A DNA stretch of 64,000 nt, taken from assembly GCA_000004985.1 (NCBI GenBank), contig GG738862.1; one strand, 5' to 3'. Source of the DNA: Naegleria gruberi. Its lineage: Eukaryota. A program made the position numbers and the translations under genes. The stretch's first letter is position 1. Every line of letters begins with the position of its first letter. The notes under the pieces were generated by a model. The model saw only the letters and a program-made list of their open reading frames with translations. It did no database searches and was not told where the DNA came from. Below, one piece after another: positions 4,168 through 56,035 of this stretch.

Positions 4168-4428
4168 ATGAACGCTGTTATTATTCCATCAAATACTTCT
4201 GCTACTCATAAGAAGATGCATGCCAAGAAACATTCACCCCTATCAGAGAGAAGAACCTTCTCAAGTGAATTAACTGTCAATTTGACTTCAGATAGAACTG
4301 CAATTGCTAATACTGCCAATCCAAAGAAGATCTATCATATGTCTCAATATTATACCAGAGACGAAATTGAAGAAATTTATTTCGAATGGTTGGCCACTAC
4401 TGAGTATATTAAGCTCTATGAAGATTAA
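4168..4428 (+). CDS. small hypothetical protein (86 aa)
   Basis: ATG at 4168. Basic/Ser-Thr-rich ORF with no recognisable domain. It is isolated in a 1.5-kb intergenic stretch and could be spurious. Confidence 0.25.
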   Translation: MNAVIIPSNTSATHKKMHAKKHSPLSERRTFSSELTVNLTSDRTAIANTANPKKIYHMSQYYTRDEIEEIYFEWLATTEYIKLYED

Positions 4429-4671
4429 TTCCTACAAATGAAGATTATTCGAAATAATCACTTGTCATTTAAGGAATTGAAAAGAATTGGTTGTGTTTGT
4501 TAACATCAAGAAAATGAAACGTATTCAATGCATGAAATTATCAAAAAACACTTGTAAATAGTAAACTGCTAATTTAACTTTAAAAATTGATTCCAATTCT
4601 TGTTACTTTTGCCTAAAATACGTGTAATTTAAAGTATACTTTCCAAATTAAATTATGAGCAAAGCCTCAAT

Positions 4672-6892
4672 TCAAAAGGCTAGGGTTCTAATGACACTAT
4701 CTTTATGTTTTGGAGTGTTCTTCCTCAAAAAGTAGTCCTTATCTTGAAAGTATGTTTTAACAATTTTTGCCTTTTGCTTTAAATGAACAAGCTGTGGAGT
4801 AGCATTATTCTCTGAAGGAATAAATAAAAGATCGAGTAAACTAAAAGCATCCATTCTCTTATCCATAGACTTGACCAGTATCTTTTTTTTGATAATGGAA
4901 AGAATGATACTTTCATCATTTGAAAGGTCCACATCTTCCAAATAACCTTCAACAGTCTCTTCATCTTCTAAAAATTCCAACCTCTCCTCATGAATAATTT
5001 CTAACAGAACCATTCCCAATGAATAAATATCGCTCTTTGGGGAAATTAAATTTTTCTCAACTCTCTCAGGAGATCTGTATCCTGCAACATTAAGGGATGT
5101 GTAAAATAGGTTGAGTAGTTTGTAAACTTACCTTCTGAAAAATTCTTTGATGTCAGTGGATTCAAGTTCTTATCTACACATATTCCATCTTCAAGAGAAA
5201 ATTTCGTTGCTATTTCAAAATCTATCAAAAACCAATGCTTATCATACAACACAATATTTTCTGGTTTGATATCATTATGTGTAATTTGGTGTTTTTGTAA
5301 GAAACAGAGCTGAACAAGCAAATCAATGAAAAAAGCCATAATATTAATCTTCTTTCCCTTATTAAAGAACCTAGTCATACATTTACCAGCTAATGAAAGT
5401 GAAAAATTCCCATCAATCATTGGAGCATACAGAGTTAGGAAGTTATATCTTATAGAATCCTCATTAATGTTAATATTTGGTTGGTATTTAATAAAATACT
5501 CAACGCCATTAATTTTCCCCTTTTTGAGAGTTGAGCGGGTTTGGATTGGGTCAAAATTTTTGTCGTATTCTATCAATTGATTGTCTGCATCTAATTTAGG
5601 AAATGAAATTTCATTCTTTTGGTTGGATGACATCATACTTATTTGGCGTTGTGTAGTTAAATATTCGGTAACCTCTTCATTATTTGGATAAATGAGAGCT
5701 GTCATAATTCTAGCAATGAGATGAATTCGATCCATAACAACTTCGTGCTTATAGGATCCAATGAATGAAAGAGTAAAATTTGAAAGAGTTATGGATTTAC
5801 CATTCAAGCTGATTGATGAGCAGTGCAAAGAATACAAATGAGATGCCTGTCTGTCTGTTGTGATACCTAGAACTAATACTTGATTGTGCCATTCCTCAAT
5901 ATCTTTCTTGATAAGCTGCCTCATGGCATGAGAGAGGGCAATCTTCATCTGAGAAATGAGAGCTATAAAGTCCTTGTGGCTGGTGTGACTTTGATAAATA
6001 TCCGGCGAATCTTCTCTGATAACCCTAATGCATTTGTAACTATTTTTAAAAGTAACAATGGTAATATCGTCAGGTCTAAAGTCGGGAATGCTGGCCTGAA
6101 GATTGCCATCCAAACTGCCAACAAAATCTTGAATGCTAGAATTTCTGAACACCTCGAGATTAGTATTTAAAATCAAGTAACTTACGATCCTCCTGAACAG
6201 CCAGAAAAAATAGAGGTAAATCCCATTATTGGAGCAAAATATAATCTGGTAAGTTCCATTTCACTCTCCTCCATTGAATTACGAAATGGAGGGATTATTG
6301 AGCTGAATATTAAATTGTCTATTGTTTTCAATCGAAGATTATAGGATGACACATTATTGGTTGCATCAATTTGATATTCTATATTTTCGTATTTCTTGTC
6401 CAATTTTAGCCCTTCTTTCCTTAACTCATAAATTAGGGTCGAAATATCAGGATTTTGAAGATATCCAAGCAATAATGCTTGAATATTTTCTATTGTTTTC
6501 TTTTTTTCTTCGAATAAAGGATTAGTTTGACTGTTGTTCAATGTGATACCAAAGCCATACAAGGTATATTTGAATATGTTTGCCAGCTTGCTATTGTTGA
6601 TTGAAAAATGAGCAGGAAATTGAACTTTTTTGATATCCTCCAAGTTTGCAATGTTATGGTTATTTACAATATCGTTAAGTTTCCTTTTGGACGGTCTTTT
6701 CAAAGTCTTTTCGTTAATATTGTAAAATTTGGAAACAATATTAAGGGAGACAGCCATTTGCACATTCTCTATGACTTTTTTCTTACAATATTCTTTTTGT
6801 TTGTTAGACTTTTCTGAAGTTTCATTGGAATGTCGGTCATTGATTTTCTTTCGTTTGTTCTCTGCAATTAAGGTGGAAGCTTTTCTTTTCAT
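4672..6892 (-). CDS. protein kinase with N-terminal extension (3 exons, ~709 aa)
   Basis: Model: complement join(6186..6892, 5132..6144, 4672..5081).
- Intron 1 (6145-6185, 41 nt): GTAAGT donor sits at the ORF-track stop of ORF 6182..6937; acceptor gtgttcag; phase 2. It joins in frame to MILNT.../NSSIQDF.
- Intron 2 (5082-5131, 50 nt): gtaagtttac...tgttgcag; phase 1. It joins ...KNFSEG to YRSPERVEKNLISPKSDIYSLGMVLLEI (kinase subdomains VIII-IX).
- Catalytic loop HNDIKPENIVL; DFG appears as DFE; APE as SPE.
- Total 2130 nt = 710 codons.
- The first in-frame ATG at 6892 is assumed; the ORF-track start at 6937 is GTG. Confidence 0.6.
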
Positions 6893-7319
6893 TTTTTTTG
6901 AAAATAATGGCGCCAAAAAGGCTGAGTTGCTGTCCACGTTCTTCTTTTCTTCATCATGTAAGGCAAAAGTATCTCGTTCTAAATTTCTAATGTGATCGAT
7001 ATCATCTGTTTGTGGTTGGTTTTTGTTCTTCTTTTTGGTATTCGATTGTTGGGATGATGCAATTAATTGGAAGAATGGACTCTTTCTTAGTTTTGGTTTG
7101 AATTTTTACACTTGGAGGGTAGAAAGCAAGAATTAGAGCATCATCATTTCAAATGACTTCAGCTTGTAAAGATTTAAATTTACCAAATGATGCCTTTCCC
7201 TGCTTCCTCACCATCCTGCAAATATTGGTTTAAGCTTGAATTACTAAGTAACTCATCTAGAAAATCAGCTGAATGTTTTGCATATCATCATTGATGAATA
7301 TTTTGATGAATACTAGATG

Positions 7320-39244: not shown

Positions 39245-40231
39245 ATGCGACCTCTCTTTTCCATTCGCTCTGACATTGTTCGGCACTTTTCTTCTGCTAT
39301 CCGACCTTTCTTTAATTCGGCAGAAAAACTGTTCAGAGAAATAATGAAACCACATTTAACCTTTGAAGAATGCGCAAGTCTGTATGCGAATACGAACACA
39401 AAATCAATGAGTCTTGCAACCCTTATGATTACTTTGTGCTCTAAGCATAAACGGTCCGAAGTGGAAAGAAGGAAATATATTGATGAATTGAAAAATATTA
39501 TTCATCATTTTGATGAAGGCTCTGCCACTATTAGAACCATTGATATTGCCATTTCTACATTAGTGCATGAAGAAGGCTATGATGAAGTTGTAACTCTTGT
39601 TAGAAAACTTGGAAATTCATCACTTGCTTCTCTGAAGAGTTTTAGATTGGATCAAATCTTAAAAGTTCTCTCAAGTTATCCGAATGATTTTGAATTGGAT
39701 ATTGCCAAACATATATTTTCTGTTTTACTTGAAAGAAAACAAGTCAGTTTATACGCCTACAATTACTATGCACAGTGTTTGTTTAAATATAATTTTGAAG
39801 AGGGGATGACATTATTACATGAAATGAATGCTCAAAAAATCAAAATTTTTGATAATCTGTTTATTTCCTCATTGACTTTCTCTTTAAAGAAAAACAAACA
39901 AAAAGAAAGTAGAATGATTTGCTCAATGATTGAACATTCCAAAACTACCAACAAAGTGCTATTAACCACAATGGTGAATTTTTATAACAAATGTGAAGAC
40001 TATGATAAGGCAATTGAAATTACTAGAAACGTTAGCAGTGATGGATTGGATACAACTTCATATAATTGTTTAATTCAATCCTATATTGGAAAAAGTGATT
40101 TAAATAGAGCAATAGAGATGCTTGCTGAAATGCAACAGCAAAATATTTCACCCGACTCGGCCACATTTACAATTATTTTAACTGCTTGTGCTGACAGTAA
40201 GAATTACGAACAAGGGTTGAAAGTACTTTAG
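39245..40231 (+). CDS. pentatricopeptide-repeat (PPR) protein, N-terminal segment (ends at an in-frame stop inside a tandem repeat unit)
   Basis: ATG at 39245. The N-terminus is R/S-rich (presequence-like), followed by PPR-like helical repeats (MVNFYNKCEDYDKAIEITRNV...SYNCLIQSYIGKSDLNRAIEMLAEMQQQNISPDSATFTIILTACAD). Confidence 0.55.
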   Translation: MRPLFSIRSDIVRHFSSAIRPFFNSAEKLFREIMKPHLTFEECASLYANTNTKSMSLATLMITLCSKHKRSEVERRKYIDELKNIIHHFDEGSATIRTIDIAISTLVHEEGYDEVVTLVRKLGNSSLASLKSFRLDQILKVLSSYPNDFELDIAKHIFSVLLERKQVSLYAYNYYAQCLFKYNFEEGMTLLHEMNAQKIKIFDNLFISSLTFSLKKNKQKESRMICSMIEHSKTTNKVLLTTMVNFYNKCEDYDKAIEITRNVSSDGLDTTSYNCLIQSYIGKSDLNRAIEMLAEMQQQNISPDSATFTIILTACADSKNYEQGLKVL

Positions 40232-41800
40232 TTAGAGAACAAAATCGAGCACATCATCTATGAGATTTGAATCAATGATTAATTTCTATAACAAATGTGA
40301 AAAATATGATAAGGCCATTGAATTATTTGATAGCGTTCCAAAAGATAGAGTAGATACGACATCATATAATTGTGTAATTCAATCCTATATTGGAAAAGGT
40401 GATTTAAATGGAGCAATAGAAATACTTGCTGAAATGCAACATCTAAATATTTTACCTAACTCTACAACATTGCTATTATTTTAACTGCTTGTGCTGACAG
40501 CAAGAATTATGAGCAAGGATTGAGGGTGTTGAATATAGTTGGAGAGAACAAACTTTCAAGTAATCATTAGATAACCTCAATGATTAATTTCTATAACAAA
40601 TGTGAAAAATATGATAAGGCCATTGAATTATTTGATAGCGTTCCAAAAGATAGAGTAGATACGACATTATCACAATTGTGTAATTCAATCCTATATTGGA
40701 AAAGGTGATTTAAATGGAGCAATAGAAATACTTGATGAAATGCAACATCTAAATATTTTACCTAACTCTACAACGATGGCTATTATTTTAACTGCTTGTG
40801 CTGACAGCAAGAATTATGAGCAAGGATTGAGGGCGTTGAATATAGTTGGAGAAAGCAAACTTTCTAGTACTCATTGATGACCTCAATGATTAATTTCTAT
40901 AACAAATGTGAAAAATTTGATAAGGCCATTGAATTATTTGATAGCGTTCCAAAAGATAGAGTAGATACGACATCATATAATTGTGTAATTCAATCCTATA
41001 TTGGAAAAGGTGATTTAAATAGAGCAATAGAAATACTTGATGAAATGCAACATCTAAATATTTTACCTAACTCTACAACGATGACCATTATTTTAACAGC
41101 TTGTGCTGACAGCAAGAATTATGAGCAAGGATTGAGGGTGTTGAATATAGTTGGAGAAAGCAAACTTTCTAGTACTCAGTTGATGACCTCAATGATTAAT
41201 TTCTATAACAAATGTGAAAAATTTGATAAGGCCATTGAATTATTTGATAGCGTTCCAAAAGATAGATTAGATACAAGTTTTCACAACTGTTTAATTCAAT
41301 CCTATATTGGAAAAGGTGATTTGGATAGAGCATTTAGTATTTTTAATCACATGAAGGAATACTGTTCTATTCAACCTATTATCCCTGATACAACTACGTA
41401 TTTGGTGTTATTGACAGGTTGTGCAGACAGAGAATCTCTGAGCAAGGATTGAGGGTGTTGAATATAGTTGGAGAAAGCAAACTTTCTAGTACTCAGTTGA
41501 TGACCTCAATGATTAATTTCTATAACAAATGTGAAAAATTTGATAAGGCCATTGAATTATTTGATAGCGTTCCAAAAGATAGATTAGATACAAGTTTTCA
41601 CAACTGTTTAATTCAATCCTATATTGGAAAAGGTGATTTGGATAGAGCATTTAGTATTTTTAATCACATGAAGGAATACTGTTCTATTCAACCTATTATC
41701 CCTGATACAACTACGTATTTGGTGTTATTGATAGGTTGTGCAGATTTAGTATCTCCAACCAAAGGAAAAACATTAATTAAAGAGATACAAGAAAAACAAC
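39960..41800 (+). repeat. intragenic tandem array, six ~304-316-bp units (about 3 PPR motifs each)
   Basis: Units start near 39970, 40274, 40578, 40876, 41182 and 41498 (...CAATGATTAATTTCTATAACAAATGTGAAAAAT...). Units 2 and 3 carry stops and 1-bp indels relative to units 4-6; units 5 and 6 are near-identical. Confidence 0.8.
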
Positions 41801-42828
41801 TAGATAGTTCTGAGATGATCAAATCTGCAATGTTGACATTCTATTCCAAAACTTGCAACCAGAAAAAGACAACCGAAATATTAACAGATATACTAAGCAG
41901 CAACCCCTCCATTATGTCATATAATTGTATTTTAGCAAGTTATGCTCGTCATGGACAGGGTAAAAAAGCTTTGAATTTATTCAAGTCTATGGTTAAAAAC
42001 AGTGTACAACCTAATGGAGATACTATCACAATTATTTTGAATGCCTTGTCACATAGTGGAATGGTTGAAGAGGCCATAAAGATTTACAGCACAATAGAGA
42101 CACTCAAAATAATCCCATCACCATCCCATAAAACAGTAATGGTTGATGTTTTTGCGAGGGCTGGATTATTTAATGAAGCTGAACAGCTCATTGGAGACAG
42201 TACTGAGGCAATACTATGGCGAACACTCATGGCAGGATGTAGAAAGCATAATAATATAGAGATAGCAGAAAAAATATTCGAAATTTTAACAAAAATAGAA
42301 CCAACCGATCCATCTCCTTACATACTGCTATCAAATATTTACATGTTTAAAGGAAATAATACTAAGGCAAGTGAAATAAGAGGTTTGATGGTACAACAAG
42401 GCATTAAAAAAATTCCTGGAATTGTTTATAGTGAAGATAAAGGTACAACCTATCAATTCATTTCTGGTTCCAGTAATTACCCATTGTTTACAGAAGTGGA
42501 GAATAAGCGAAAAGAGATTTATCAAAAAATTATTGGTGCTGGTTATGTATCAGATACTAGATGGGTTACAAACGCTCAACTAATATCTGAGGAGGAAAAG
42601 ATTGATTCTTTATGCAGACACGCAGAAAAAATAGCAATCTCCCATGCTTTTGTTTTGCAACCAAATAGAAAAAAGATACTTTTAACAAGTAATTTGAGAG
42701 TTTGTAATGACTGTCACAATGCCATAGCTTACATTTCAAAAGAAATGAATGTGGAAATAGTTGTAAGAGATGCAAACAGATATCATCACTTCAAAAATGG
42801 TAAATGTAGCTGCAATGATTATTGGTAA
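41419..42828 (+). CDS. PPR-E-DYW protein, C-terminal segment (DYW cytidine-deaminase-like domain)
   Basis: The C-terminus HAEKIAISHAFVLQPNRKKILLTSNLRVCNDCHNAIAYISKEMNVEIVVRDANRYHHFKNGKCSCNDYW matches the plant DYW domain (HSEKLA..NLRVCGDCH...EI.VRD..RFHHF.DG.CSCGDYW). The preceding E/E+ region reads IPGIVYSEDKGTTYQFISGSSNYP...GYVSDT. Upstream PPR/TPR-like repeats continue back into the tandem array. Confidence 0.7.
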   Translation: MCRQRISEQGLRVLNIVGESKLSSTQLMTSMINFYNKCEKFDKAIELFDSVPKDRLDTSFHNCLIQSYIGKGDLDRAFSIFNHMKEYCSIQPIIPDTTTYLVLLIGCADLVSPTKGKTLIKEIQEKQLDSSEMIKSAMLTFYSKTCNQKKTTEILTDILSSNPSIMSYNCILASYARHGQGKKALNLFKSMVKNSVQPNGDTITIILNALSHSGMVEEAIKIYSTIETLKIIPSPSHKTVMVDVFARAGLFNEAEQLIGDSTEAILWRTLMAGCRKHNNIEIAEKIFEILTKIEPTDPSPYILLSNIYMFKGNNTKASEIRGLMVQQGIKKIPGIVYSEDKGTTYQFISGSSNYPLFTEVENKRKEIYQKIIGAGYVSDTRWVTNAQLISEEEKIDSLCRHAEKIAISHAFVLQPNRKKILLTSNLRVCNDCHNAIAYISKEMNVEIVVRDANRYHHFKNGKCSCNDYW

Positions 42829-44487: not shown

Positions 44488-45543
44488 TTACAAATTCAAG
44501 ACAATGCTAACAAGTTTGACAGCTTCCTCTGATTGTGGTAAACTAGTTACCAAAGCATTACTTGGTTGCATTTCATGACTCAAATTATAAACACAACTCA
44601 TTCCACAAAAATCAATTCCACATTCATTTCCAATTCGATTGCAAGCCACAAAATATGGAAATTGCTCTTTGGTAGAAATCATGGGTTGTAATCTATCCAA
44701 CCAATACTCGAGACAATCAGTTGAAAACCAATTACACATGAATACCAATACATCAGATCCAATTTCCTTATGGAAAGTGGTCAATTCTCTCAAATTAATG
44801 TCAGTGCAATAATTTGTTCCATTGTCAATATCCATACAAATTCCAACACCAATTCGAATATTTTCTCTATCCATTCCTGTTGGTTTATCCATGGTAGAAG
44901 TGTCGTGTGTGAGAATGCAACGCTCATTCAAGGAATAATCAAATGCTTTGAATGTATCACCTTCCTCTGCCCACACAGTATCCGCCTCAAAAAGGAAATG
45001 TTTTCTGTAGGTCACATAATTACCATTATGTGAAATCACATACATTGAATTATACAATTTACAATTGGATAGCTCATCCTTTCCATCTTGAATCAATTCC
45101 TTTTCTGGAAATCCCAAAAAAACAGTGCAATTGAATTTCTTGGCAAGTGCAAGTCCATATTCGAAATACTCTCCACCAGGACCAGATCTCTCACAGAATG
45201 GAAAGATATCCTCCCTATCTTTGAAAACATAGCCAGAGAGTGTCATTTCTGGAAAGACGAGAAAATCAATTAATTTCGAATCGAGTGGAGAAAGCATGTG
45301 TGAAATGTGTTCCTTGTTAATGTCTATTTGTTTGAATTTTATATCGCATTGACAAATGGCAACGTTTAGTGTGATTTTGCTGTTGCTGTTGGCGTGATGC
45401 AGGGAAGTATCTGATGCTGACATTTTTTTTATTGTGAACTCCGGTTGAAACTCCTTGTTGGATGCTGAAATTGTGTGGAAAAGCATCCACCAATCTGCAT
45501 TTTCAGGTTTTATCGTATTTTGAATGCTGTGGATTACAGTCAT
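44488..45543 (-). CDS. carbon-nitrogen hydrolase (nitrilase superfamily; Nta1-like amidase branch possible)
   Basis: ATG at 45543-45541. Putative Glu-Lys-Cys triad: FPEMTLSGY (Glu), YRKHFLF (Lys), GVGICMDI (Cys). 351 aa, single exon. Confidence 0.7.
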   Translation of the reverse strand: MTVIHSIQNTIKPENADWWMLFHTISASNKEFQPEFTIKKMSASDTSLHHANSNSKITLNVAICQCDIKFKQIDINKEHISHMLSPLDSKLIDFLVFPEMTLSGYVFKDREDIFPFCERSGPGGEYFEYGLALAKKFNCTVFLGFPEKELIQDGKDELSNCKLYNSMYVISHNGNYVTYRKHFLFEADTVWAEEGDTFKAFDYSLNERCILTHDTSTMDKPTGMDRENIRIGVGICMDIDNGTNYCTDINLRELTTFHKEIGSDVLVFMCNWFSTDCLEYWLDRLQPMISTKEQFPYFVACNRIGNECGIDFCGMSCVYNLSHEMQPSNALVTSLPQSEEAVKLVSIVLNL

Positions 45544-46084
45544 ATTCAATGTTCAATTTTATGATGATGGAAAAATGTATTTCATTCCGAGAGATATTTC
45601 ATTTGAACTGATAGAAATAAATTGATGGGAGGAGGTGTTGCTGAACAAACCATGTGTCAAATAAGAGAAGAGTCAAGAAGAAGAAATTCTGTCAAGTGAA
45701 CACATGTGTTGTAAACTCATGATGGAACCCACTACGATTTTCTGACATGTCCAAATAATTGTAGTTCAATTACAACAGTATAATGCAATTTACAAAAGTG
45801 AGTGACATACCTACCATTTATCTAATTTGTTGCCAATCATGTCCAAATTTATTCTGTCAATTGTCCAAACCTTACTCAACCACCAATGAGATTGAAGTGT
45901 CATGGACAACGATAGTTCCAGCGTTTGTCCTTGTTCTGCAACATTCTATCCATTACAATATGCAGCTCTGGTGAACTTTCCACTGCGCCATTCTCGTGTC
46001 CATCATCGCTTTCGAATAAAAACTGCAGCAAATCTCACAAAATTTCACAACAAAAAAAAACAAAAACCAATCAATCATAAAAAG

Positions 46085-46523: not shown

Positions 46524-46562
46524 CACTACGAGCCAACGAGCTAAGAAATGTCGTCGAGCTGT
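46524..46562 (+). repeat. left terminal inverted repeat of candidate element
   Basis: CACTACGAGCCAACGAGCTAAGAAATGTCGTCGAGCTGT. The outer 13 bp and inner 13 bp are perfectly inverted-complementary to 50629-50657. Confidence 0.6.
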
Positions 46563-46715
46563 GAAATATTTTCGCAATTATTAAAAAATAAAAATGGTGA
46601 GACCTTTCAATACTTTCATTCTCAATTTAGAGACATGAAAAACAAATTTAGTCATTATCCGCCAGTATAAAAGCTAACAAAACAACATGTGCAACAATTA
46701 AACAACAAAACAAAT

Positions 46716-47357
46716 ATGACCAGGAACAACAACAATAATAAGAGGAAGAGTAGTGATAGTAGTGGAAAACAGAAGAAGAGGAAGATACAAACTGGGGAAT
46801 TACCATCATCAATACCTTTGGATTCAAGAGATGGAGAAGGAGAAGTGGATTTCATTTTGGAATCAGGAGATTTTGAATATAAACCGGAATATGAGGAGTG
46901 GAATCAAGTACCATCGGAAAAGCAATTAGTTTTTAGTGTTATTTGGGGAGTTTTTGCTAAATGTGCAAGATGTAAAATCAATCAACATTTGGATATGAAT
47001 GCTAGTTGTACAATTAATCATGAAACTCTTGGATCATGTGCACATCAAGTATTTTATTTGATGATGAAGGACTCAAAGGGAGAATTTCGTAGATGGTATC
47101 AGGATGTTTGGTGGAATGGTATTAGAAAAAGAAGCAAATGTATTCAATTTATATTCCGAAATTGTTTACCGAATTTTGATAAATATGATGATTGGGGAAT
47201 GGTATTAATATTGCACACCAACAACACATCTCAATTTGGAACACTCAAATGTAGACAACAAATGAATATTACTAGAATGTCAATAACTTGTAATATTGAA
47301 ACAGGAGAGGTTTGGAGTTCTTTTAGATTCAAGAAGTCAATTGAGAAAGTACGATAA
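46716..47357 (+). CDS. Cys/His-rich hypothetical protein (213 aa) inside candidate element
   Basis: ATG at 46716; the ORF-track start at 46689 is GTG. N-terminal KR-rich NLS-like tract. Contains CARCKINQHLDMNASCTINHETLGSCAH. Confidence 0.45.
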   Translation: MTRNNNNNKRKSSDSSGKQKKRKIQTGELPSSIPLDSRDGEGEVDFILESGDFEYKPEYEEWNQVPSEKQLVFSVIWGVFAKCARCKINQHLDMNASCTINHETLGSCAHQVFYLMMKDSKGEFRRWYQDVWWNGIRKRSKCIQFIFRNCLPNFDKYDDWGMVLILHTNNTSQFGTLKCRQQMNITRMSITCNIETGEVWSSFRFKKSIEKVR

Positions 47358-47389
47358 CAACTTGTCAACCAACAATCAACAAATAAAAT

Positions 47390-49123
47390 ATGTCAGCATC
47401 CTTTAAATCTGACGTTCGTAAAATTGCTTTAACAATACCTCCCGAGTTGAACAATGATTCATTTCCTTCCATCCTACTTTTTTGTGTGTGTCAGCTCATG
47501 CTGAAATGTATTACAATAGAAGTACTCGAAAATATTTTGCTAAGTGCTTTTATTAATATTTATTTACCAATGATGACAAACAATAATGAACGCAACAAAC
47601 CTCTTGGCTGGGAAATTATTGATGATGATGATGTTACATCTCAACATAATTCGGAAGCAAGTATTGACATTGTTTCATTGTTAAGACAAGCAAGTGATGA
47701 AGTACAAAATATTGAACAAAGTGAGGATGTAGAGCATTCCCAACAAACAAGAAAACAATCAACAAGCAAGAAACCAAAAGCACCAAAACAGGTGCCAATT
47801 TTATACACTGATATTTTGGATAATTATACTGATTTTTCGTTTTTAAAATATAAATTAACTGGAGATGCAATTATTGAGGATGGAAGAGTTAATAGAACTA
47901 AGAGCAAATCTAAGCCAGTAGCAATTTGTAATATGGATCATTTCGGATTTTCAAAAAAAGATTTGTTTAGAAAATCTTGTAAACATTTCGTTGAATCTAA
48001 GCCCCATCTAAATTTAATATCAGCTAACAATAATTCTATTAAAAGCATCAAACTATTTAATATTAATGAAATGAAACAGAGTAAGGATATAAAATTTAAA
48101 GATAAAGAAGTTCTAGGAAGATTCTTATTTGGAATTGAATTGGCTGGATTAAATCATGGAATTAATGGATTTGAACATTTTATTCATTTGATTGCATATT
48201 TATTTAAGGATGAATTTATTCATGCCATTGGAACATATGATTACAAGGATAAAATTTTAAAAAAAGTAAAAGAATTACCAATTCAGGAACATTTAGAAAG
48301 TCTTAATGAATATATTGAGATGTATGAAAAAAAAACATTTCCAATAATATCTCCACTGAAATATATTGAAGAAGAGCAACATCAGGATTTGGATAGTGAA
48401 GAAGATCAAAATGAAGAACATGAACATTTTAATGAATTTAATACTGGAGTGGTTTCAACAACAAAGAAACATTCAAAGGAAAAACAACAACCACAAAAAG
48501 AAACAAATATTGAAAATGATGATAATGAATGGCATGATATAGATAGCTCAATGGATGACGATGTTGAAGAGGTAGTTAATATTGTTGAACAATCACGTGT
48601 AGATGTAGTCAATAATGAATCAAGTAAATTTACATTTACTAAAAAAATGGTTAGAGATATTTATGGAAAACAAGAATCCAGAATGTCATGTTTGAATTAT
48701 TCTAAATTTTCCAAAATAACTGAATCAGACAACACCAAAGACTCAGTTTTAAGAAAAGCAACAGCTATTTTGAATATACAAACTCTTTTAAAATTTGGAG
48801 TTCAGGTTGATGAAGAAAATTCAATAGTTGTCGCGAGCATGCTCAAGGTGTTGGAAGAATCAATAAGGTACCACATTAATTGGATTAAGGAAGCCGAAAA
48901 AGATGAAACTTTGAGCAAAAAATTGAAAAAAGAGGATTTGGAAATAGATTTAAAAGTATTTTATTTCAAATTAAATCTAGATGAAGCCTCAGGTACTGTT
49001 ACATTCGCTATTCAATTATTGAATGGAAAATCTCATGGAAATCCCGAATCGAGATTAAATGTGACAACACTAGCTGCCTGGCGTGGAGGCGAAGAGAAAA
49101 TGAGATCGAAAGTAGTAATGTAA
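47390..49123 (+). CDS. hypothetical 577-aa protein inside candidate element (possible transposase / accessory; acidic central region)
   Basis: ATG at 47390, 33 nt after the stop of the previous ORF. The stop at 49121-49123 lies 12 nt before the Tet ATG. No DDE triad recognisable by eye. Confidence 0.5.
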   Translation: MSASFKSDVRKIALTIPPELNNDSFPSILLFCVCQLMLKCITIEVLENILLSAFINIYLPMMTNNNERNKPLGWEIIDDDDVTSQHNSEASIDIVSLLRQASDEVQNIEQSEDVEHSQQTRKQSTSKKPKAPKQVPILYTDILDNYTDFSFLKYKLTGDAIIEDGRVNRTKSKSKPVAICNMDHFGFSKKDLFRKSCKHFVESKPHLNLISANNNSIKSIKLFNINEMKQSKDIKFKDKEVLGRFLFGIELAGLNHGINGFEHFIHLIAYLFKDEFIHAIGTYDYKDKILKKVKELPIQEHLESLNEYIEMYEKKTFPIISPLKYIEEEQHQDLDSEEDQNEEHEHFNEFNTGVVSTTKKHSKEKQQPQKETNIENDDNEWHDIDSSMDDDVEEVVNIVEQSRVDVVNNESSKFTFTKKMVRDIYGKQESRMSCLNYSKFSKITESDNTKDSVLRKATAILNIQTLLKFGVQVDEENSIVVASMLKVLEESIRYHINWIKEAEKDETLSKKLKKEDLEIDLKVFYFKLNLDEASGTVTFAIQLLNGKSHGNPESRLNVTTLAAWRGGEEKMRSKVVM

Positions 49124-49135
49124 TATTTTAAATTT

Positions 49136-50526
49136 ATGATTGAGGCTACTAGAGCTAACGGAGTAATTGTTGATGGGAAAACATACAAAGTTGACTATTT
49201 AATGACAACTGATTTATTATCCTTGAAAAATATTAGTAGATTAATGTTTAAAAGAATGTGCCCATATTGTTTGAGTCTTTCAACATTATGTGATAGAAGA
49301 CATGTATTGAGAGCAAAAGAAGAACTTTCATGTATTTTATCTATTCCTCCCTCAAAGATAGTAATTTGTTTCCTCCATTTAAGGGAACGAATCATGGAAA
49401 GACTGTTAATAGATTCAATATTGACAATGAGTAGTACGAGAAAATTTTTGAAGACGTTGAAATCAATTAAGAATTTTCAGAACTTTTCATTGCGTCAACT
49501 TAACACCAAAAAAGGAATATTATATAGATGTTACTTGATAGGAAATATGGTTAAATCATTGTTAAAAAGTCTTATTGTTATCAAGAAATTTATCAATCCA
49601 ATGCAATATGAATTGATGACCAAATTTAAACGAGTAGTGGATTTGTTGAACGTAAAGGAACGAATGGATGATGAACAGTATGAAACTTTTATGAAAGCTC
49701 TCAAAGATATGCAACAATCATATTGCAGATTATATGTTAATGGTCCTAAAAGTTGGTACATGCACATATTGTTTCATCATGTTCCAAGTTTATTGAAAAT
49801 GTACGGCTCCTTAAAGCCATTTGAAACTCAGGGTTTTGAAGGTAAGTAATCATTAACTTTAATATTAATTGTAAACAGGAGCTCACATTGACGATAAAGA
49901 TCTATTGGAAAAAACCTCTCATAATGGAGGAAGAAAATCATATTTGCACTTTATGTTTCCAAACTTTAAAGATATAATGTTAATCCAATTTATTTTACCT
50001 AGATTAAGGAAATTGTTAATTTGTAACGAGTATGGTTTTAAATTTGACTGTAGTAAAAGAGATTCTAAATTGGTAAGGCAATTTCTTGATGAGCCCTATC
50101 CTGATATACTTTGTGAATATTCTCATTTATTGGAAAGAAATGATGATCAAATGTGTGATGACGAATGTTGTCAAAATAATTGATTCACATAGAATTATTA
50201 AAGCTCATAGGGATAATCTTGATGTAGGAGTTAGTATATTGTTTTATTTCGGATCGTATCTTGAAAATGAAGGTTATTTGGAGTTAACTGATAAAAATTG
50301 CAAAATATATTGCAGACCTGGAGATGTAGTGATATTTAAAGGAAATATTTATAAACACAAAGTTAATAATATTTCAACAGGATTTAGGATAGGAATTGTT
50401 TATTTCACACATAAGGGAAACAAGTCAAAACCATACTATGAAACAACGCAACGAGCCTCTTTGAAGCAACACAGAGAGTTGTTTCCTAACGAGAAGCCAA
50501 AGAAAAAGAAGAAGACAAATAAATAA
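49136..50526 (+). CDS. Tet/JBP-family 2-oxoglutarate/Fe(II) dioxygenase (NgTet-like), 3 exons, ~432 aa
   Basis: Model: join(49136..49841, 49879..50022, 50078..50526).
- Intron 1 (49842-49878, 37 nt): GTAAGTaatc...gtaaacag, phase 1.
- Intron 2 ends at the AG at 50076-77. Its donor is GTAACG at 50023 (55 nt); the alternative is GTTTTA at 50035 (43 nt). Both are phase 1 and both keep the total divisible by 3.
- Catalytic motifs: H-R-D (SHRIIKAHRDNLDVGVSILFYFGSY), distal His (GDVVIFKGNIYKHKV) and 2OG-binding Arg (GFRIGIVYFTHKG).
- The C-terminal half is near-colinear with NgTet1 as I recall it (YLELTDKNCK; KPYYE.TQ..SLK.H.E). Confidence 0.65.
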
Positions 50527-50628
50527 ACGAACTTCATTCCTATCAATGTCAAAAATTTATTTGTTGTTTACATTCTAAAGAGAACATCCCTTCCAAAAAA
50601 AATTTACCTTCTACTTGTATTCTAATGT

Positions 50629-50657
50629 ACAGCTCGACGACCGCTTGGCTCGTAGTG
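50629..50657 (+). repeat. right terminal inverted repeat of candidate element
   Basis: ACAGCTCGACGACCGCTTGGCTCGTAGTG. Its reverse complement matches the left end 46524-46562. Confidence 0.6.
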
Positions 50658-50695
50658 TTGTGTTTTGAAAACTTGATCACAATTTGGATAAAAAA

Positions 50696-52606
50696 ATGTC
50701 ATTAGAGGATGATGGAGAGAAGCAGATTTATTCTGTGTTTAATTTACCGGAAGTGGTTTCTAATGTTTTATTAAATTTATCTGCAAGGGAAAGAGCAAAG
50801 TTTCGTCTCATCAATTCGAATTGTGATCAAGTATACAAAATTGAAGAGGAATTATTATTTATTAAATTATGGACAAGATATAGAGATGGACATTCGTTCG
50901 GATATCAAGAAGAAACACTTTCTAATGAAGAATTGGAGCATTATCAAGAAATTTATGGAAATTTACAATTTCATTTGCGTGTTTGGTTGACTAAATGTTC
51001 AAATGGAAGATATGAGAGGGAAAATTCATTGTTATTGAGTATTTGCAATATTGGCGATTGGAGATTTATTCAAGATTGTCCATTTGTGAATGAAGATTTT
51101 CTTGAAGAATATTTAGATTCGAATTTGGTAAAGAGTTTAGTTTGTGTTCACATGGCGAAAGAAGTTTCGTATTTTATGGACATGAGAAGTGGAATATTCT
51201 ACCAAAATGTTAATATTAAATCTACTTTGAATTGGAAAAGACTTGGAACTATTCAAGAATGGTTAGAAAATATGCCCTTCGATATATTAGGAAAATTATC
51301 AATGACTAATAAGGGAAGAAAAGTTAATTATCTTGCAAAACTTATGAAAGCAATGGAAGGAAATAATATTGAGGCGATTATTTCTTTATTGAAACAGAAT
51401 TTATGTTTATTTCCCTATTTAAAGGATCAATTTAAAAGAAGGGAAGAAATTTTACAATTTTTATTGGAAAATAACGTTTATGGAACATCAATTATTGGTA
51501 TACACAGTTATTTACCTGCATTTATACCGTATGATTTGAGATGTGATCCAGATTTTGTATTGAAATATTGTAAAATTATTGATTTTTATTATTATTTACC
51601 AACTAAATTAAGAAATGATACTGAATTGATCATTAAAATATTGGAAATTCACAAAGATGTCACTATTCATCTCAGTTCAGTACCAAAAGAATTATTTTCT
51701 GATATTAGGGTTTTGAAAATATTAAGAAAACCAATTATGGAAGAATTACAATACAAAGATTTCCCACATTTGGAAATTGACACTATTGAAAAATTAATGA
51801 TATTTGGAGATTGTAATATTCTATATCCATACATATCTGACAAGTTACTCAATGATCAAGATTTTATCAGGAAATTTTTAATTGCTCAATATGGAGAGGA
51901 GTATAATGTAAATCCTACAAATTTGGAATCTGTTAAACATCCATTACAAATGGTGTTTATTGACCAATCATTGAGAAGTAACAAATCAATCATGGAAAAC
52001 CTCTCACAATACCATCTTTTATATTTATGTGGCGACTTGAAAAGAGATTTTGACATTTTATCAAAAATTGAAAAAACAAGTATTCTAAAGAAGGTCAATC
52101 CACTTTTAACATTGGAAGATTATCTTGAAATATTTAGAAAATTCATACAAAGATCTCCAACGAAAACTTTTACATTTTACTATTATATTTCAAATTTACC
52201 AACAAAATTATTCAATTGTAAAGAGGTTGTTCTGACAACAGCAAAATTATACAAAAAGTATCTTGTGGTTTTAAGTAAGATTGGAAGTGAATTATGTAAG
52301 GATGTGCAGTTTTGGAGGGAATTGTTAGAGGAAACTTCGTATGTTGATATTGGAAGTTTCGTCCCACATGAAATTCGAAACGATCCAAAAGTTTTCCTCA
52401 AACAATTGAAATATCCTGAATTGCAAATGTGTTCAAAAGAGTTGTTGGAAAATGTTGAATTTGTGGAGGAGTTTTTGGTTGCCAATAATCATTTCGAATA
52501 CATTTACCTTTCACCTAAAATGAGATCAAATAAGGAATTATTCATGACATTAAGTGAGAAAGATATGGAACTATTTCAATTTGCATCCCCTGATTTATTT
52601 GCCTAA
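50696..52606 (+). CDS. DUF4116-repeat protein with F-box-like N-terminus (637 aa)
   Basis: ATG at 50696; the ORF-track start at 50684 is TTG. N-terminal LPEVVSNVLLNLSARERAKFRLINSNCDQV (F-box-like). Repeated D..FVLK...LP..LRND.E(L/I) units (DPDFVLKYCKII..LPTKLRNDTELIIKIL; LLNDQDFIRKFL; IRNDPKVFLKQL; MRSNKELFMTL). Confidence 0.55.
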   Translation: MSLEDDGEKQIYSVFNLPEVVSNVLLNLSARERAKFRLINSNCDQVYKIEEELLFIKLWTRYRDGHSFGYQEETLSNEELEHYQEIYGNLQFHLRVWLTKCSNGRYERENSLLLSICNIGDWRFIQDCPFVNEDFLEEYLDSNLVKSLVCVHMAKEVSYFMDMRSGIFYQNVNIKSTLNWKRLGTIQEWLENMPFDILGKLSMTNKGRKVNYLAKLMKAMEGNNIEAIISLLKQNLCLFPYLKDQFKRREEILQFLLENNVYGTSIIGIHSYLPAFIPYDLRCDPDFVLKYCKIIDFYYYLPTKLRNDTELIIKILEIHKDVTIHLSSVPKELFSDIRVLKILRKPIMEELQYKDFPHLEIDTIEKLMIFGDCNILYPYISDKLLNDQDFIRKFLIAQYGEEYNVNPTNLESVKHPLQMVFIDQSLRSNKSIMENLSQYHLLYLCGDLKRDFDILSKIEKTSILKKVNPLLTLEDYLEIFRKFIQRSPTKTFTFYYYISNLPTKLFNCKEVVLTTAKLYKKYLVVLSKIGSELCKDVQFWRELLEETSYVDIGSFVPHEIRNDPKVFLKQLKYPELQMCSKELLENVEFVEEFLVANNHFEYIYLSPKMRSNKELFMTLSEKDMELFQFASPDLFA

Positions 52607-54175: not shown

Positions 54176-56035
54176 ATGTATCAAAGGAAAGCATTGATAA
54201 CTAACCAATCAATCCTTAGTGTCAGTTTGCTGCTAGTTTGTTTACTGGCATTAAGTATTTTGCATGTTCCATCATCTGTTTTGTGTGCTTCCTCAAGTAG
54301 CTCATCAAGTAATGGAACTGTGAGAGAATGGCTCAATGACTTGAATGATCAAGCTGCTAATCTACAATCCTCTGCTTCAAGATTGCAAAAAGCTATTGCA
54401 ATTTTGAGTATGGCCAACAATACAGCATCCATCATCAGCATGAGAAATGCCCAGCTAAAGAAGATTAATTCTGCACTTGACATGATTAATCAAGAAATTT
54501 CAATCTTTAAAATCACCTGCAGTAATAATGATGGTCCTGATTGTAGCATTCCAGTATGTGTATCAAAGTGTTTGAACTGCTCTGGACCTGGAAAGTGTGG
54601 TGTTTGTTCTGGTAATTTTGATGGAAGTGATTGCTCTGCATGTAAATCTGGATGGAGTAATTACAATAGCAATTGTACTGTTCCAATTTGTGATTCTAAA
54701 TGTATTATTTGTCAATCACCTGGAAACTGTACCAATTGCTCTGGTAATTATGATGGTTCTGTATGTTCATCATGCAAATCAGGATGGAATGGTTCTAATT
54801 GTTCAACACCTATTTGTGATTCTAAATGTGTAACTTGTCTCTCACCAGGAAACTGTACTAATTGCTCTGGTAATTGGACTGGATCTGCCTGTTCTATTCC
54901 TGTATGTGATTCCAAATGTTTGAATTGTTCAGCACCTAGTGTTTGTTCTCAATGTTCTGGTAATTGGGTTGGTTTAACTTGTTCAGTATGTCAGACAGGA
55001 TGGACAGGAGCAACTTGTTCAACACCAGTATGTGATTCCAAATGTACAACCTGTGCATCTCCTGGTGTTTGCTCAGTTTGTTCTGGTAATTGGCAAGGAT
55101 CTACATGTTCCACATGTAAGACAGGATGGACAGGAGCAACTTGTTCAACACCAATTTGTGATTCCAAATGTACAACCTGTGCATCTCCTGGTCAGTGTTC
55201 TGTGTGTTCTGCTGGTTGGACAGGAGCAACTTGTTCAACACCAGTTTGTGATTCTAAATGTACAACATGTGCATCTCCTGGTCAGTGTTCTGTGTGTTCT
55301 TCTGGTTGGACAGGAGCAACTTGTTCAACACCAGTTTGTGATTCCAAATGTACAACATGTACATCTCCTGGTGTTTGCTCAGTTTGTTCTGGTAACTGGG
55401 ATGGTCCTTCATGTTCTGTGTGTAAAACTAGTTGGACAGGTTCATCTTGCAATCTCGCTCTTGGTGATTTTGCAAACTCACCATTATTCTCCGCTAGTTA
55501 TGGAGCTAGGTTGATCACATCTATTTTGAGTGGCGTTATGAAGAAAACACCAACCAGACTCTATAGAGCCATGGCAACTTATGGTATGGGAATTGGTTAT
55601 GGCTATCATCCTTACGCTTTCCATAATGCCTGCAATGGTTATTCTTCAACAGTTACAATTGTGAAAACATCAGCAGGGGCTGTATTTGGTGCCTATCTAA
55701 GCATTCCATGGGAAGATTATAATGCTGGGGATACAACAACTCGTAAGACATTTTCAGATCCTAATGCATTTCTATTTAGTATGGTAACATCGAGCGGTGT
55801 GGAGAGATTTGTGAAATTGGGTTATTCTGGAGCTGTTGGACAAACTGTTACATACAATTTTATAACACATCCATTGTTTGGAGCGTCGGATATTTATTTG
55901 GGACAAGGGATGAGCTATCAGCCAGCACCTGATGCTTATTCGAAACCAGCAACTTTTCAACCTTTGGAACCTAACTGGAGTTATGGAACTACATATTCAT
56001 TCACTGTTTCTGATTATGAAGTGTATAGTATTTAA
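54176..56035 (+). CDS. secreted Cys-rich EGF/furin-like repeat protein with C-terminal TLDc domain
   Basis: ATG at 54176. Signal peptide MYQRKALITNQSILSVSLLLVCLLALSILHV. About 12 tandem CxxxCDSKCxxCxSPGxCxxCSGNWxGSxCSxCKxGWTGxxCS units. C-terminal ...VTIVKTSAGAVFGAYLSIPWEDYNAG...NAFLFSMV...GASDIYLGQG...SFTVSDYEVYSI is a TLDc-like signature. Confidence 0.65.
   Translation: MYQRKALITNQSILSVSLLLVCLLALSILHVPSSVLCASSSSSSSNGTVREWLNDLNDQAANLQSSASRLQKAIAILSMANNTASIISMRNAQLKKINSALDMINQEISIFKITCSNNDGPDCSIPVCVSKCLNCSGPGKCGVCSGNFDGSDCSACKSGWSNYNSNCTVPICDSKCIICQSPGNCTNCSGNYDGSVCSSCKSGWNGSNCSTPICDSKCVTCLSPGNCTNCSGNWTGSACSIPVCDSKCLNCSAPSVCSQCSGNWVGLTCSVCQTGWTGATCSTPVCDSKCTTCASPGVCSVCSGNWQGSTCSTCKTGWTGATCSTPICDSKCTTCASPGQCSVCSAGWTGATCSTPVCDSKCTTCASPGQCSVCSSGWTGATCSTPVCDSKCTTCTSPGVCSVCSGNWDGPSCSVCKTSWTGSSCNLALGDFANSPLFSASYGARLITSILSGVMKKTPTRLYRAMATYGMGIGYGYHPYAFHNACNGYSSTVTIVKTSAGAVFGAYLSIPWEDYNAGDTTTRKTFSDPNAFLFSMVTSSGVERFVKLGYSGAVGQTVTYNFITHPLFGASDIYLGQGMSYQPAPDAYSKPATFQPLEPNWSYGTTYSFTVSDYEVYSI
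54530..55440 (+). repeat. intragenic tandem DNA repeats (alternating ~120-bp and ~78-bp units) encoding the EGF-like modules
   Basis: Near-identical DNA units, for example ACTTGTTCAACACCAGT(A/T)TGTGATTC(C/T)AAATGTACAAC(C/A)TGTGCATCTCCTGG(TGTTTGC/TCAGTGT). They produce antisense pseudo-ORFs (54597..54833, 55032..55514). Confidence 0.8.

Follow-up and report, generated by a model that had tools for sequence, protein, structure and literature searches.

Within a 64,000-nt stretch of Naegleria gruberi DNA (contig GG738862.1; hereafter the window), we analysed a unit bounded by inverted repeats at 46524-50657, which holds two open reading frames (ORFs), ORF1 of 213 amino acids (aa) and ORF2 of 577 aa, a further ORF following ORF2, and sequence derived from a Tet/JBP dioxygenase gene (Table 1). 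A first-pass annotation had described ORF1 and ORF2 as proteins of unassigned function co-packaged with Tet in a possible transposon. The inverted-repeat boundaries that it had noted turned out to be real: each end consists of two 12-bp blocks, CACTACGAGCCA and GTCGTCGAGCTG, and each of these 12-mers is found just twice in the window, the two matches being inverted relative to each other, against a chance expectation of about 0.01. Between the blocks lies a spacer of 14 nt at the left end and of 4 nt at the right. ORF1 and ORF2 are, as reported, close-set and in the same orientation, with 32 nt from the stop codon of the former to the ATG of the latter. None of the ORFs was found to occur a second time in the window.

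ORF2 is 100% identical to a 516-aa N. gruberi "predicted protein" in the NCBI database. Its N-terminal domain (about aa 118-380) is conserved, and it further contains an acidic linker and the start of an RNase H-like core; the acidic central stretch pointed out in the first-pass annotation is indeed present at about aa 300-400, with 10 to 14 Asp or Glu residues per 40. Two segments of ORF2, aa 118-379 and 417-573, match a relative of the element found in metagenome contigs (L001 and L002) at E values of 8e-12 and 7e-19, respectively. The following ORF (49136-49849 when unspliced) is in the frame of ORF2, separated from it by a TAA and four codons, and has one close relative in the protein P0002, which L001 encodes; it matches the metagenome relative at 44% identity (E 6e-88). 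In L002 a single continuous ORF of 1170 aa spans both window ORFs, and a 505-aa ORF of Willaertia magna (L010) reads through the position of the TAA, as does L001. This stop codon faces a Tyr in the homologues and is thus one substitution away from TAT or TAC. Farther downstream, a 37-nt segment has to be removed to restore both the frame and the homology, and since the relatives lack it we regard it as an intron of the N. gruberi copy. The homology to the relatives stops near ...MCDDECCQNN-stop, so that the natural C-terminus, some 10 to 45 codons, is missing.

Judged by its sequence, the 577-aa ORF is the N-terminal ~60% of a DDE (Asp-Asp-Glu) transposase and not a free-standing protein, and together with the following ORF it is predicted to have once formed one transposase of about 900 aa. 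The following ORF carries the second Asp, CxxC, LH, HxxxxH, and Glu of the catalytic core. No DDE signature had been recognized in the first-pass annotation; the core is there in a split state, with D531 and E568 in ORF2 and the rest in the following ORF. The expectation that one of the two ORFs supplies the transposition function holds for the 577-aa ORF, as part of the transposase. Because of the TAA break and the lost C-terminus, the dead-looking window copy is probably immobile.

Table 1. Positions of the features of the N. gruberi element in the window, and of genes at the related loci
Feature	Position	Strand	Basis or remark
Left terminal inverted repeat	46524-46561	+	CACTACGAGCCA, 14-nt spacer ACGAGCTAAGAAAT, GTCGTCGAGCTG
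ORF1, 213 aa (NAEGRDRAFT_66507)	46716-47357	+	100% match to N. gruberi protein
ORF2, 577 aa, predicted N-terminal part of transposase	47390-49120, TAA 49121-49123	+	tblastn to L002, L001, and L010; alignments; residue coordinates
D531	48980-82	+	ORF2 residue coordinate
E568	49091-93	+	ORF2 residue coordinate
In-frame TAA splitting the transposase gene	49121-49123	+	Faces Tyr in homologues (window VVM-stop-YF, L002 LRYYF)
Transposase continuation	49124-49841	+	First ATG 49136; profile with P0002; family invariants
D26	49211	+	Numbering from ATG 49136
C42/C45	49259/49268	+	Numbering from ATG 49136
C78/H81	49367/49376	+	Numbering from ATG 49136
H210/H215	49763/49778	+	Numbering from ATG 49136
E235	49838	+	Numbering from ATG 49136
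37-nt intron, GTAAGT...ACAG	49842-49878	+	Removal restores frame and gap-free alignment (FETQGFEG/AHIDD) to P0002/L002 and L010
Last transposase exon	49879-50183	+	Alignment with P0002/L002 and the L010 505-aa ORF
Tet/JBP 3' gene fragment	50182-50526	+	Frame +1; C-terminal ~105 residues of a dioxygenase like NgTet1, with HRD, YKH, and R motifs and native stop
Right terminal inverted repeat	50630-50657	-	Minus-strand reading: CACTACGAGCCA, 4-nt spacer AGCG, GTCGTCGAGCTG
L011 ORF1-like gene	Tandem upstream of transposase, 15-nt gap		tblastn E 2e-15
L012 ORF1-like gene	Tandem upstream of transposase		hhalign probability 89.6%, E 1.9e-6, 153 columns
L013 ORF1-like gene	Tandem upstream of transposase		Same hhalign comparison as L012 (89.6%, E 1.9e-6)
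L014 ORF1-like gene	Downstream of transposase, convergent		Weak to profile; BLASTP E 8e-5 to L015 protein
L015 ORF1-like gene	Downstream of transposase, convergent		46 bits to family profile
L013 Tet-like gene, 336 aa	14029-15077; terminal inverted repeats at 7177 and 15238		Ends ~150 bp before right terminal inverted repeat

We then placed the transposase among known families. Pfam gave nothing useful on the single ORFs of the window. Exhaustive profile searching with HMMER, based on the following ORF together with P0002, returned 99 relatives; among ten of these that were looked up, the named hosts are N. gruberi, N. lovaniensis, and Willaertia. A scan of the Joint Genome Institute (JGI) metagenomes with the family alignment found no relative. 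When 60 of the relatives were compared with Pfam, five matched RAG1 (best E 6e-6), two matched Peptidase_C48, and one showed a weak match to Transposase_21 (E 0.002 to 0.008). In an alignment of 18 core sequences the invariant or near-invariant positions were D, E (in W.G.E), D, CxxC, C.LH..R, YxHxxxxH, and E..H. The residues characteristic of the CMCT clade, as its motif is defined in PMC12730594, are found as D531 of ORF2 and D26, C42, C45, H81, H210, H215, and E235 of the following ORF. Searched against the PDB, the family profile ranked RAG1 first (E 0.008), and 17 of the 20 matches listed were RAG1 or RAG1-like (RAG1L) chains; the aligned RAG1 positions included ADESD (E662), D708, C727xxC730, and YFH...LAH...SEGNE (H937, H942, E962). 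The sequence identity of the transposase to RAG1 is only 11 to 14%. A KDZ/Kyakuja element, our first guess by eye, was dropped when RAG1 appeared and no KDZ match did: neither a KDZ nor a CxC Pfam family was detected in the window ORFs or in the 60 family members. The distant family member P0071 has a Zn(2)Cys(6) domain fused to the C-terminus of its transposase.

The fold was examined on P0008, a protein of 980 aa (profile E 7e-55) and the nearest relative found that is intact. It was modelled with AlphaFold2 (AF2) from an alignment that took in both window ORFs; its core was predicted with a predicted local distance difference test (pLDDT) score above 90. In a Foldseek search of the PDB the 10 best matches of the model consisted solely of RAG1 and HzTransib entries (probability 1.00, E 4.5e-7 to 6e-4), and Hermes followed at 5.6e-3. 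Pairwise comparison gave the highest values for RAG1 (19.0 and 457) and amphioxus RAG1L (18.7 and 415), with HzTransib (11.3 and 266), the P element transposase (10.0 and 330), and Hermes (7.3 and 263) below them. The P0008 model has, by these matches, a fold like that of the RAG1 core. The remote-homology searches and structure prediction that the first-pass annotation had called for point to a RAG1-like RNase H-like core for the transposase.

The ends of the element agree with this placement. Both begin with CACTACG in the window, that is, with the 5'-CAC terminus of Transib and RAG-like (RAGL) elements, which resembles the heptamer of the recombination signal sequence (RSS). The other termini are CACGGCG in the metagenome relative (ends CACGGCGATCTAGGCAG...CATAAAACG, the left spacer being ~9 nt longer; ~11 versus 2 nt in its contig L003), CACAACA in N. 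lovaniensis L012 (ends CACAACAATTTA...ATTTTGTGCGC, whose spacers measure 52 and 15 nt), and CACTACA in Willaertia L013 (CACTACAATTTA at both ends), while L010 of Willaertia starts with CACTACAAACTT. A search found no right end for L010 and no terminal inverted repeats (TIRs) for L011. Bipartite TIRs are intact in at least four elements, and the longer spacer lies on the left in L003 and L012 as well, and less markedly so in L013. Asymmetric TIRs are typical of RAG-like and Subgroup I Transib elements, and the ends of the Aureococcus RAG-like transposon pair a 13-bp CAC... element with one of 10 bp, the spacers being 4 and 13 bp (Tao et al. 2022, PMC9435367).

These termini could also point to a CACTA/EnSpm-type (CMC) two-gene transposon, with ORF1 as the counterpart of TnpA and ORF2 plus the following ORF as that of TnpD. 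The En/Spm TIR is CACTACAAGAAAA, and the termini in the window, L013, and L010 start with CACTAC(G/A). The two-gene content and the weak Transposase_21 match of one family member fit this assignment too, as does the set of two Cys and three His residues, which is common to the whole CMCT clade (PMC12730594). The Pfam matches to RAG1 are, however, both more numerous and stronger, bipartite ends with unequal spacers are those reported for RAG-like and Transib elements (PMC9435367), no 3-bp target-site duplication (TSD) was found, and ORF1, which was not compared directly to TnpA itself, shows no similarity to any Pfam family. On balance, we consider a CACTA/EnSpm-type element unlikely.

Evidence of mobility was provided by the metagenome relative. 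Five of its contigs are alike from CACGGCG inwards and carry five unrelated sequences outside, the left flanks abutting CACGGCGATCTAGG, and L003 is a derivative with an internal deletion, in which 2.8 kb of the transposase gene is gone. One contig, L004, departs from the others at about position 177, some 29 nt inside the left end and not at the CAC, and represents either a copy truncated at its 5' end or a chimeric assembly. The five flanks at one terminus and the deletion derivative speak against the possibility that ORF1 and the transposase-like gene are a domesticated pair of heterolobosean host genes, with the inverted repeats as relics. Such a pair would account for its retention in N. 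gruberi, N. lovaniensis, W. magna, and environmental relatives, for the intactness of ORF1 in the window, for the gain of a spliceosomal-type 37-nt intron by the transposase gene, and for the failure to find TSDs. It is at odds with the nonsense codon and truncated C-terminus of the window copy, with flanking genes that vary between species, and with the intact bipartite TIRs, and appears quite improbable to us.

ORF1 (222 aa if started at the upstream GTG at 46689) has a lysine- and arginine-rich (KR-rich), low-complexity N-terminus of ~60 aa and a conserved domain of about 150 aa (about aa 60-210). Its homologues P0004 in the metagenome relative (46% identity; E 3e-56) and P0005 in Willaertia (49%; E 1e-32) are encoded upstream of the transposase, inside the left end. 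An ORF1-like gene adjoins the transposase in all eight loci compared (the window, L002, L010, L011, L012, L013, L014, and L015), and at the distant loci its product is ~190 to 240 aa long. The KR-rich N-terminus and the C..C/H/C/H cluster noticed earlier are present in the sequence. Among six aligned ORF1-like proteins C142 turned out to be the sole invariant Cys, with the CxxC, H102, C108, and C192 replaced in the more distant members; the cluster is therefore not a conserved zinc site, and the zinc-mediated DNA binding that had been proposed from it is not borne out. ORF1 has no match in Pfam, and the six-member profile found nothing in the PDB at an E value of up to 10, RAG2 chains being present there; a RAG2-like kelch-propeller protein was accordingly not recognized in ORF1.

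We also asked whether splicing could join ORF1 to ORF2. No intron with a GTAAGT-like donor would do so. Frame is kept by 27 GT..AG combinations, most of which cut into the conserved C-terminus of ORF1; the two that spare it share the donor at 47349 (GTACGA), a weak match. From its constant linkage to the transposase, ORF1 is most likely a transposition cofactor, acting in end recognition or regulation, and may be likened to RAG2 or TnpA in role, not demonstrably in ancestry. In the metagenome relative the spacer between the ORF1 homologue and the transposase is 2.1 kb long, as against 32 nt in the window, and contains a palindrome with 34-nt arms (91% complementary) and a 23-nt loop (L002 1771-1861, equal to L003 2138-2228). 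L003 has in addition a 193-aa ORF without a family match (4168-4749, minus strand) between the transposase and the right end, a short stretch of which is faintly similar to the ORF1 family (2 bits, not significant).

The sole match of NgTet1 to the window in a tblastn search lies at 50182-50478 and covers residues 221-319 (65.7% identity; E 1.6e-41); phmmer against the PDB gave 5cg8 and 4lt5 (E 1e-42) over chain residues 221-325 only, and the Pfam Tet_JBP match is confined to profile positions 89-164. NgTet1 residues 1-220, the N-terminal two thirds, have no counterpart anywhere in the window, which therefore holds no complete Tet gene of the kind carried by TET+ DNA transposons. The Tet homology begins exactly where that to the transposase ends, and the Tet stop codon lies ~100 bp from the right end. 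What had been taken for a Tet gene is thus, as read from the alignments, mostly transposase with a leftover Tet tail: Tet-derived sequence does lie inside the repeats, as "co-packaged with Tet" implied, in the form of the last ~105 codons. Given its shortness, the fragment is unlikely to act alone as a dioxygenase. A 40-nt GT...AG segment at 50153-50192, near the 37-nt intron in size, would on splicing fuse the transposase in frame to Tet (...LLERNDDQ/IIIKAHRD...). The unspliced frame +1 (DSHRIIKAHRD) fits NgTet1 better than the spliced one, and we therefore treated the transposase/Tet junction as a rearrangement. A word-indexed protein search with the transposase/Tet hybrid returned neither NgTet1 nor any other N. 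gruberi Tet; since the PDB search gives NgTet1 over 105 residues, these missing matches are not evidence of missing paralogues.

A full-length Tet-like gene inside TIRs was found in Willaertia L013, where it is enclosed together with an ORF1-like gene and the transposase, in the same layout as in the window. This gene matches NgTet1 (E 5e-5), CcTet (E 6e-3), and Pfam Tet_JBP (E 0.005, below the curated cutoff). The co-occurrence of the three ORFs, a check put forward in the first-pass annotation, thus holds for ORF1 and the transposase at all eight loci and for Tet at two of them. The most economical reading, by analogy with fungal TET+ transposons, is that Tet is an occasional cargo of the transposon family. 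The piece in the window would then most likely be the remnant of a Tet cargo gene after a deletion that removed the 3' end of the transposase gene and the 5' two thirds of Tet, the alternative being the capture of a Tet gene fragment.

The first-pass annotation had also offered ORF1 and ORF2 as candidate Tet partner proteins, and a functional module centred on Tet might be seen in their sharing of orientation and repeats with the Tet-derived sequence and in the recurrence of the gene order with a full Tet-like gene in L013. Against this proposal, only the last ~105 Tet codons remain in the window, in another frame; no Tet lies within reach of ORF1 and the transposase at the other six of the eight loci; and ORF2 is demonstrably part of a DDE transposase. 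We regard a Tet-centred module as already largely refuted and extremely improbable.

Taken together, the unit at 46524-50657 is very likely a decayed copy of a cut-and-paste DNA transposon with two genes that belongs to the RAG1/Transib-like (CMCT) clade, with ORF1 as a conserved partner, and the earlier suspicion that the repeats enclose a transposon is upheld. The transposase would have consisted of an N-terminal DNA-binding region, the acidic linker, and a DDE core of the RNase H-like type that bears the CxxC/H and HxxxxH zinc sites typical of RAG1. By analogy with RAG1 and Transib, a dimer of this transposase would bind two unequal ends, each consisting of the 12-bp CAC... block and the second 12-bp block with the 14-nt (left) or 4-nt (right) spacer between them. 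It would nick beside the CAC, excise the element, and reinsert it, and ORF1 would serve as its cofactor in the manner of TnpA for En/Spm or RAG2 for RAG1.

Several observations weigh against this interpretation. The sequence-level match to RAG1 is marginal (E 0.008), and the fold evidence comes not from the window protein but from P0008, which is 16 to 29% identical in the alignment. No CACTA, Chapaev, or Mirage structure was among the PDB search matches, so that the match to RAG1 does not set the family apart from these sister superfamilies. For ORF1, which lacks a Pfam or PDB match, the role rests on gene linkage, and its AF2 model from three sequences (pLDDT 39) was too poor for a fold comparison. 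The window contains a single copy, with a nonsense codon, so the evidence of mobility is that of the metagenome relative. Three elements had both flanks readable, the window copy (ATATT / TTGTG), L012 (ACTGG / AATTA), and L013 (GACTT / AAAAA), and a search of these for duplications of 2, 3, or 5 bp found none consistent across them, including the 5-bp TSD of Transib and RAGL; old insertions or chimeric metagenome contigs could mask one. As to Tet, it adjoins the gene pair in only two of the eight loci, and 3.3 kb of other sequence separates the transposase from Tet in L013.

Among known systems, the RAGL and Subgroup I Transib transposons, such as AanRAGL of Aureococcus and ProtoRAG of amphioxus (PMC9435367; Kapitonov & Jurka 2005, PMC1131882), share with the window family a RAG1-core-like DDE transposase with CxxC and HxxxxH zinc sites, 5'-CAC termini, two-block ends with unequal spacers (14/4 nt in the window versus 4/13 bp in AanRAGL), and a second conserved gene adjoining the transposase in tandem or convergently. 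They differ in that the partner in the window family is a protein of ~190 to 240 aa that shows no detectable resemblance to RAG2, a kelch/PHD protein, or to any other protein, in the 5-bp TSD, which was not seen in the window family, and in the low identity to RAG1. The host is also different, a heterolobosean amoeba, a group named neither in PMC9435367 nor in its supplements, and some copies of the window family carry Tet. Transib or RAG1-like elements in Naegleria or Willaertia find no mention in the searchable literature, Repbase being outside that search.

With En/Spm, which encodes TnpA and TnpD, the family has in common the CACTAC... termini, a small accessory protein encoded with the transposase, and the CMCT motif set; it differs in the absence of a 3-bp TSD, in best profile and structure matches to RAG1 and not Transposase_21, and in having its genes as separate ORFs and not as demonstrated products of alternative splicing. 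The fungal TET+ DNA transposons, also reported by Iyer et al. 2014, are likewise DDE transposons that carry a Tet/JBP dioxygenase gene within their TIRs, downstream of the transposase gene, and some of them have a third protein. They comprise Kyakuja/Dileera/Zisupton, Plavaka, TET+ EnSpm, and ESTA (Kojima 2025, PMC12730594), of which EnSpm, ESTA, and Plavaka belong to the same CMCT clade. The window element differs from them in its non-fungal host, in keeping only a 3' fragment of Tet, in a transposase without a KDZ Pfam match, and in a Tet of the NgTet1 type.

The surroundings of the element were also inspected. The window element is flanked by ordinary genes at 50684-52606 (+) and 44488-45549 (-), of which one codes for a carbon-nitrogen hydrolase (E 4e-19) and one for a protein with DUF4116 repeats (E 2e-16); the flanking genes in Willaertia and N. 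lovaniensis are different. Just outside the right end in N. lovaniensis (L012 11066-15386) there are two genes in tandem whose products contain Zn(2)Cys(6) domains of the fungal type. A 619-aa ORF of the window (54176-56035, +) has a signal-like N-terminus and about 10 tandem Cys-rich units (CSTPVCDSKCTTCASPG.CSVCSGNW.G..CS.C), and similar Cys-rich fragments are found in L013 (11924-12674) between the Willaertia transposase and Tet. Three consecutive ORFs at 39245-42828 (+) contain pentatricopeptide repeat (PPR)-type repeats, and the last of them has a DYW-type C-terminus (...CSCNDYW). Long near-identical segments (LMTSMINFYNKCEKFDKAIELFDSVPKDR...) that recur in the second and third ORFs suggest that part of the sequence was recently duplicated in tandem or that the frame is broken.

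A broader reading, which we put forward as tentative and rather doubtful, is that heteroloboseans host an old, diversified lineage of RAG1-like transposons with an ORF1-type second subunit, some of them with Tet, and that the Naegleria Tets are transposon-borne or transposon-derived. Such a lineage would be structurally nearer to RAG1/RAG1L than to insect Transib; its obligatory second subunit would be a small ORF1-family protein unrelated to RAG2, and its ends would follow a 4/14 rule of spacer asymmetry comparable to 12/23. Tet would be an anti-silencing cargo, and the Naegleria Tets, possibly including NgTet1, would have been carried by or derived from transposons.

The findings reassign two annotated orphan proteins of N. 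gruberi, one as a transposon accessory protein and the other as a truncated transposase, and the region of the apparent Tet gene as a transposase/Tet chimera. RAG1/Transib-like elements with unequal-spacer ends would now reach into Discoba, and their two-gene design, in which the partner is no relative of RAG2, is relevant to the recruitment of cofactors by RAG1-type enzymes and to the origin of the 12/23-type asymmetry. Tet within the TIRs of such elements is not described outside fungi in the literature consulted. If Tet is indeed their cargo, this would offer a testable origin for the Naegleria Tet family, which is used in methylation-sequencing chemistry.

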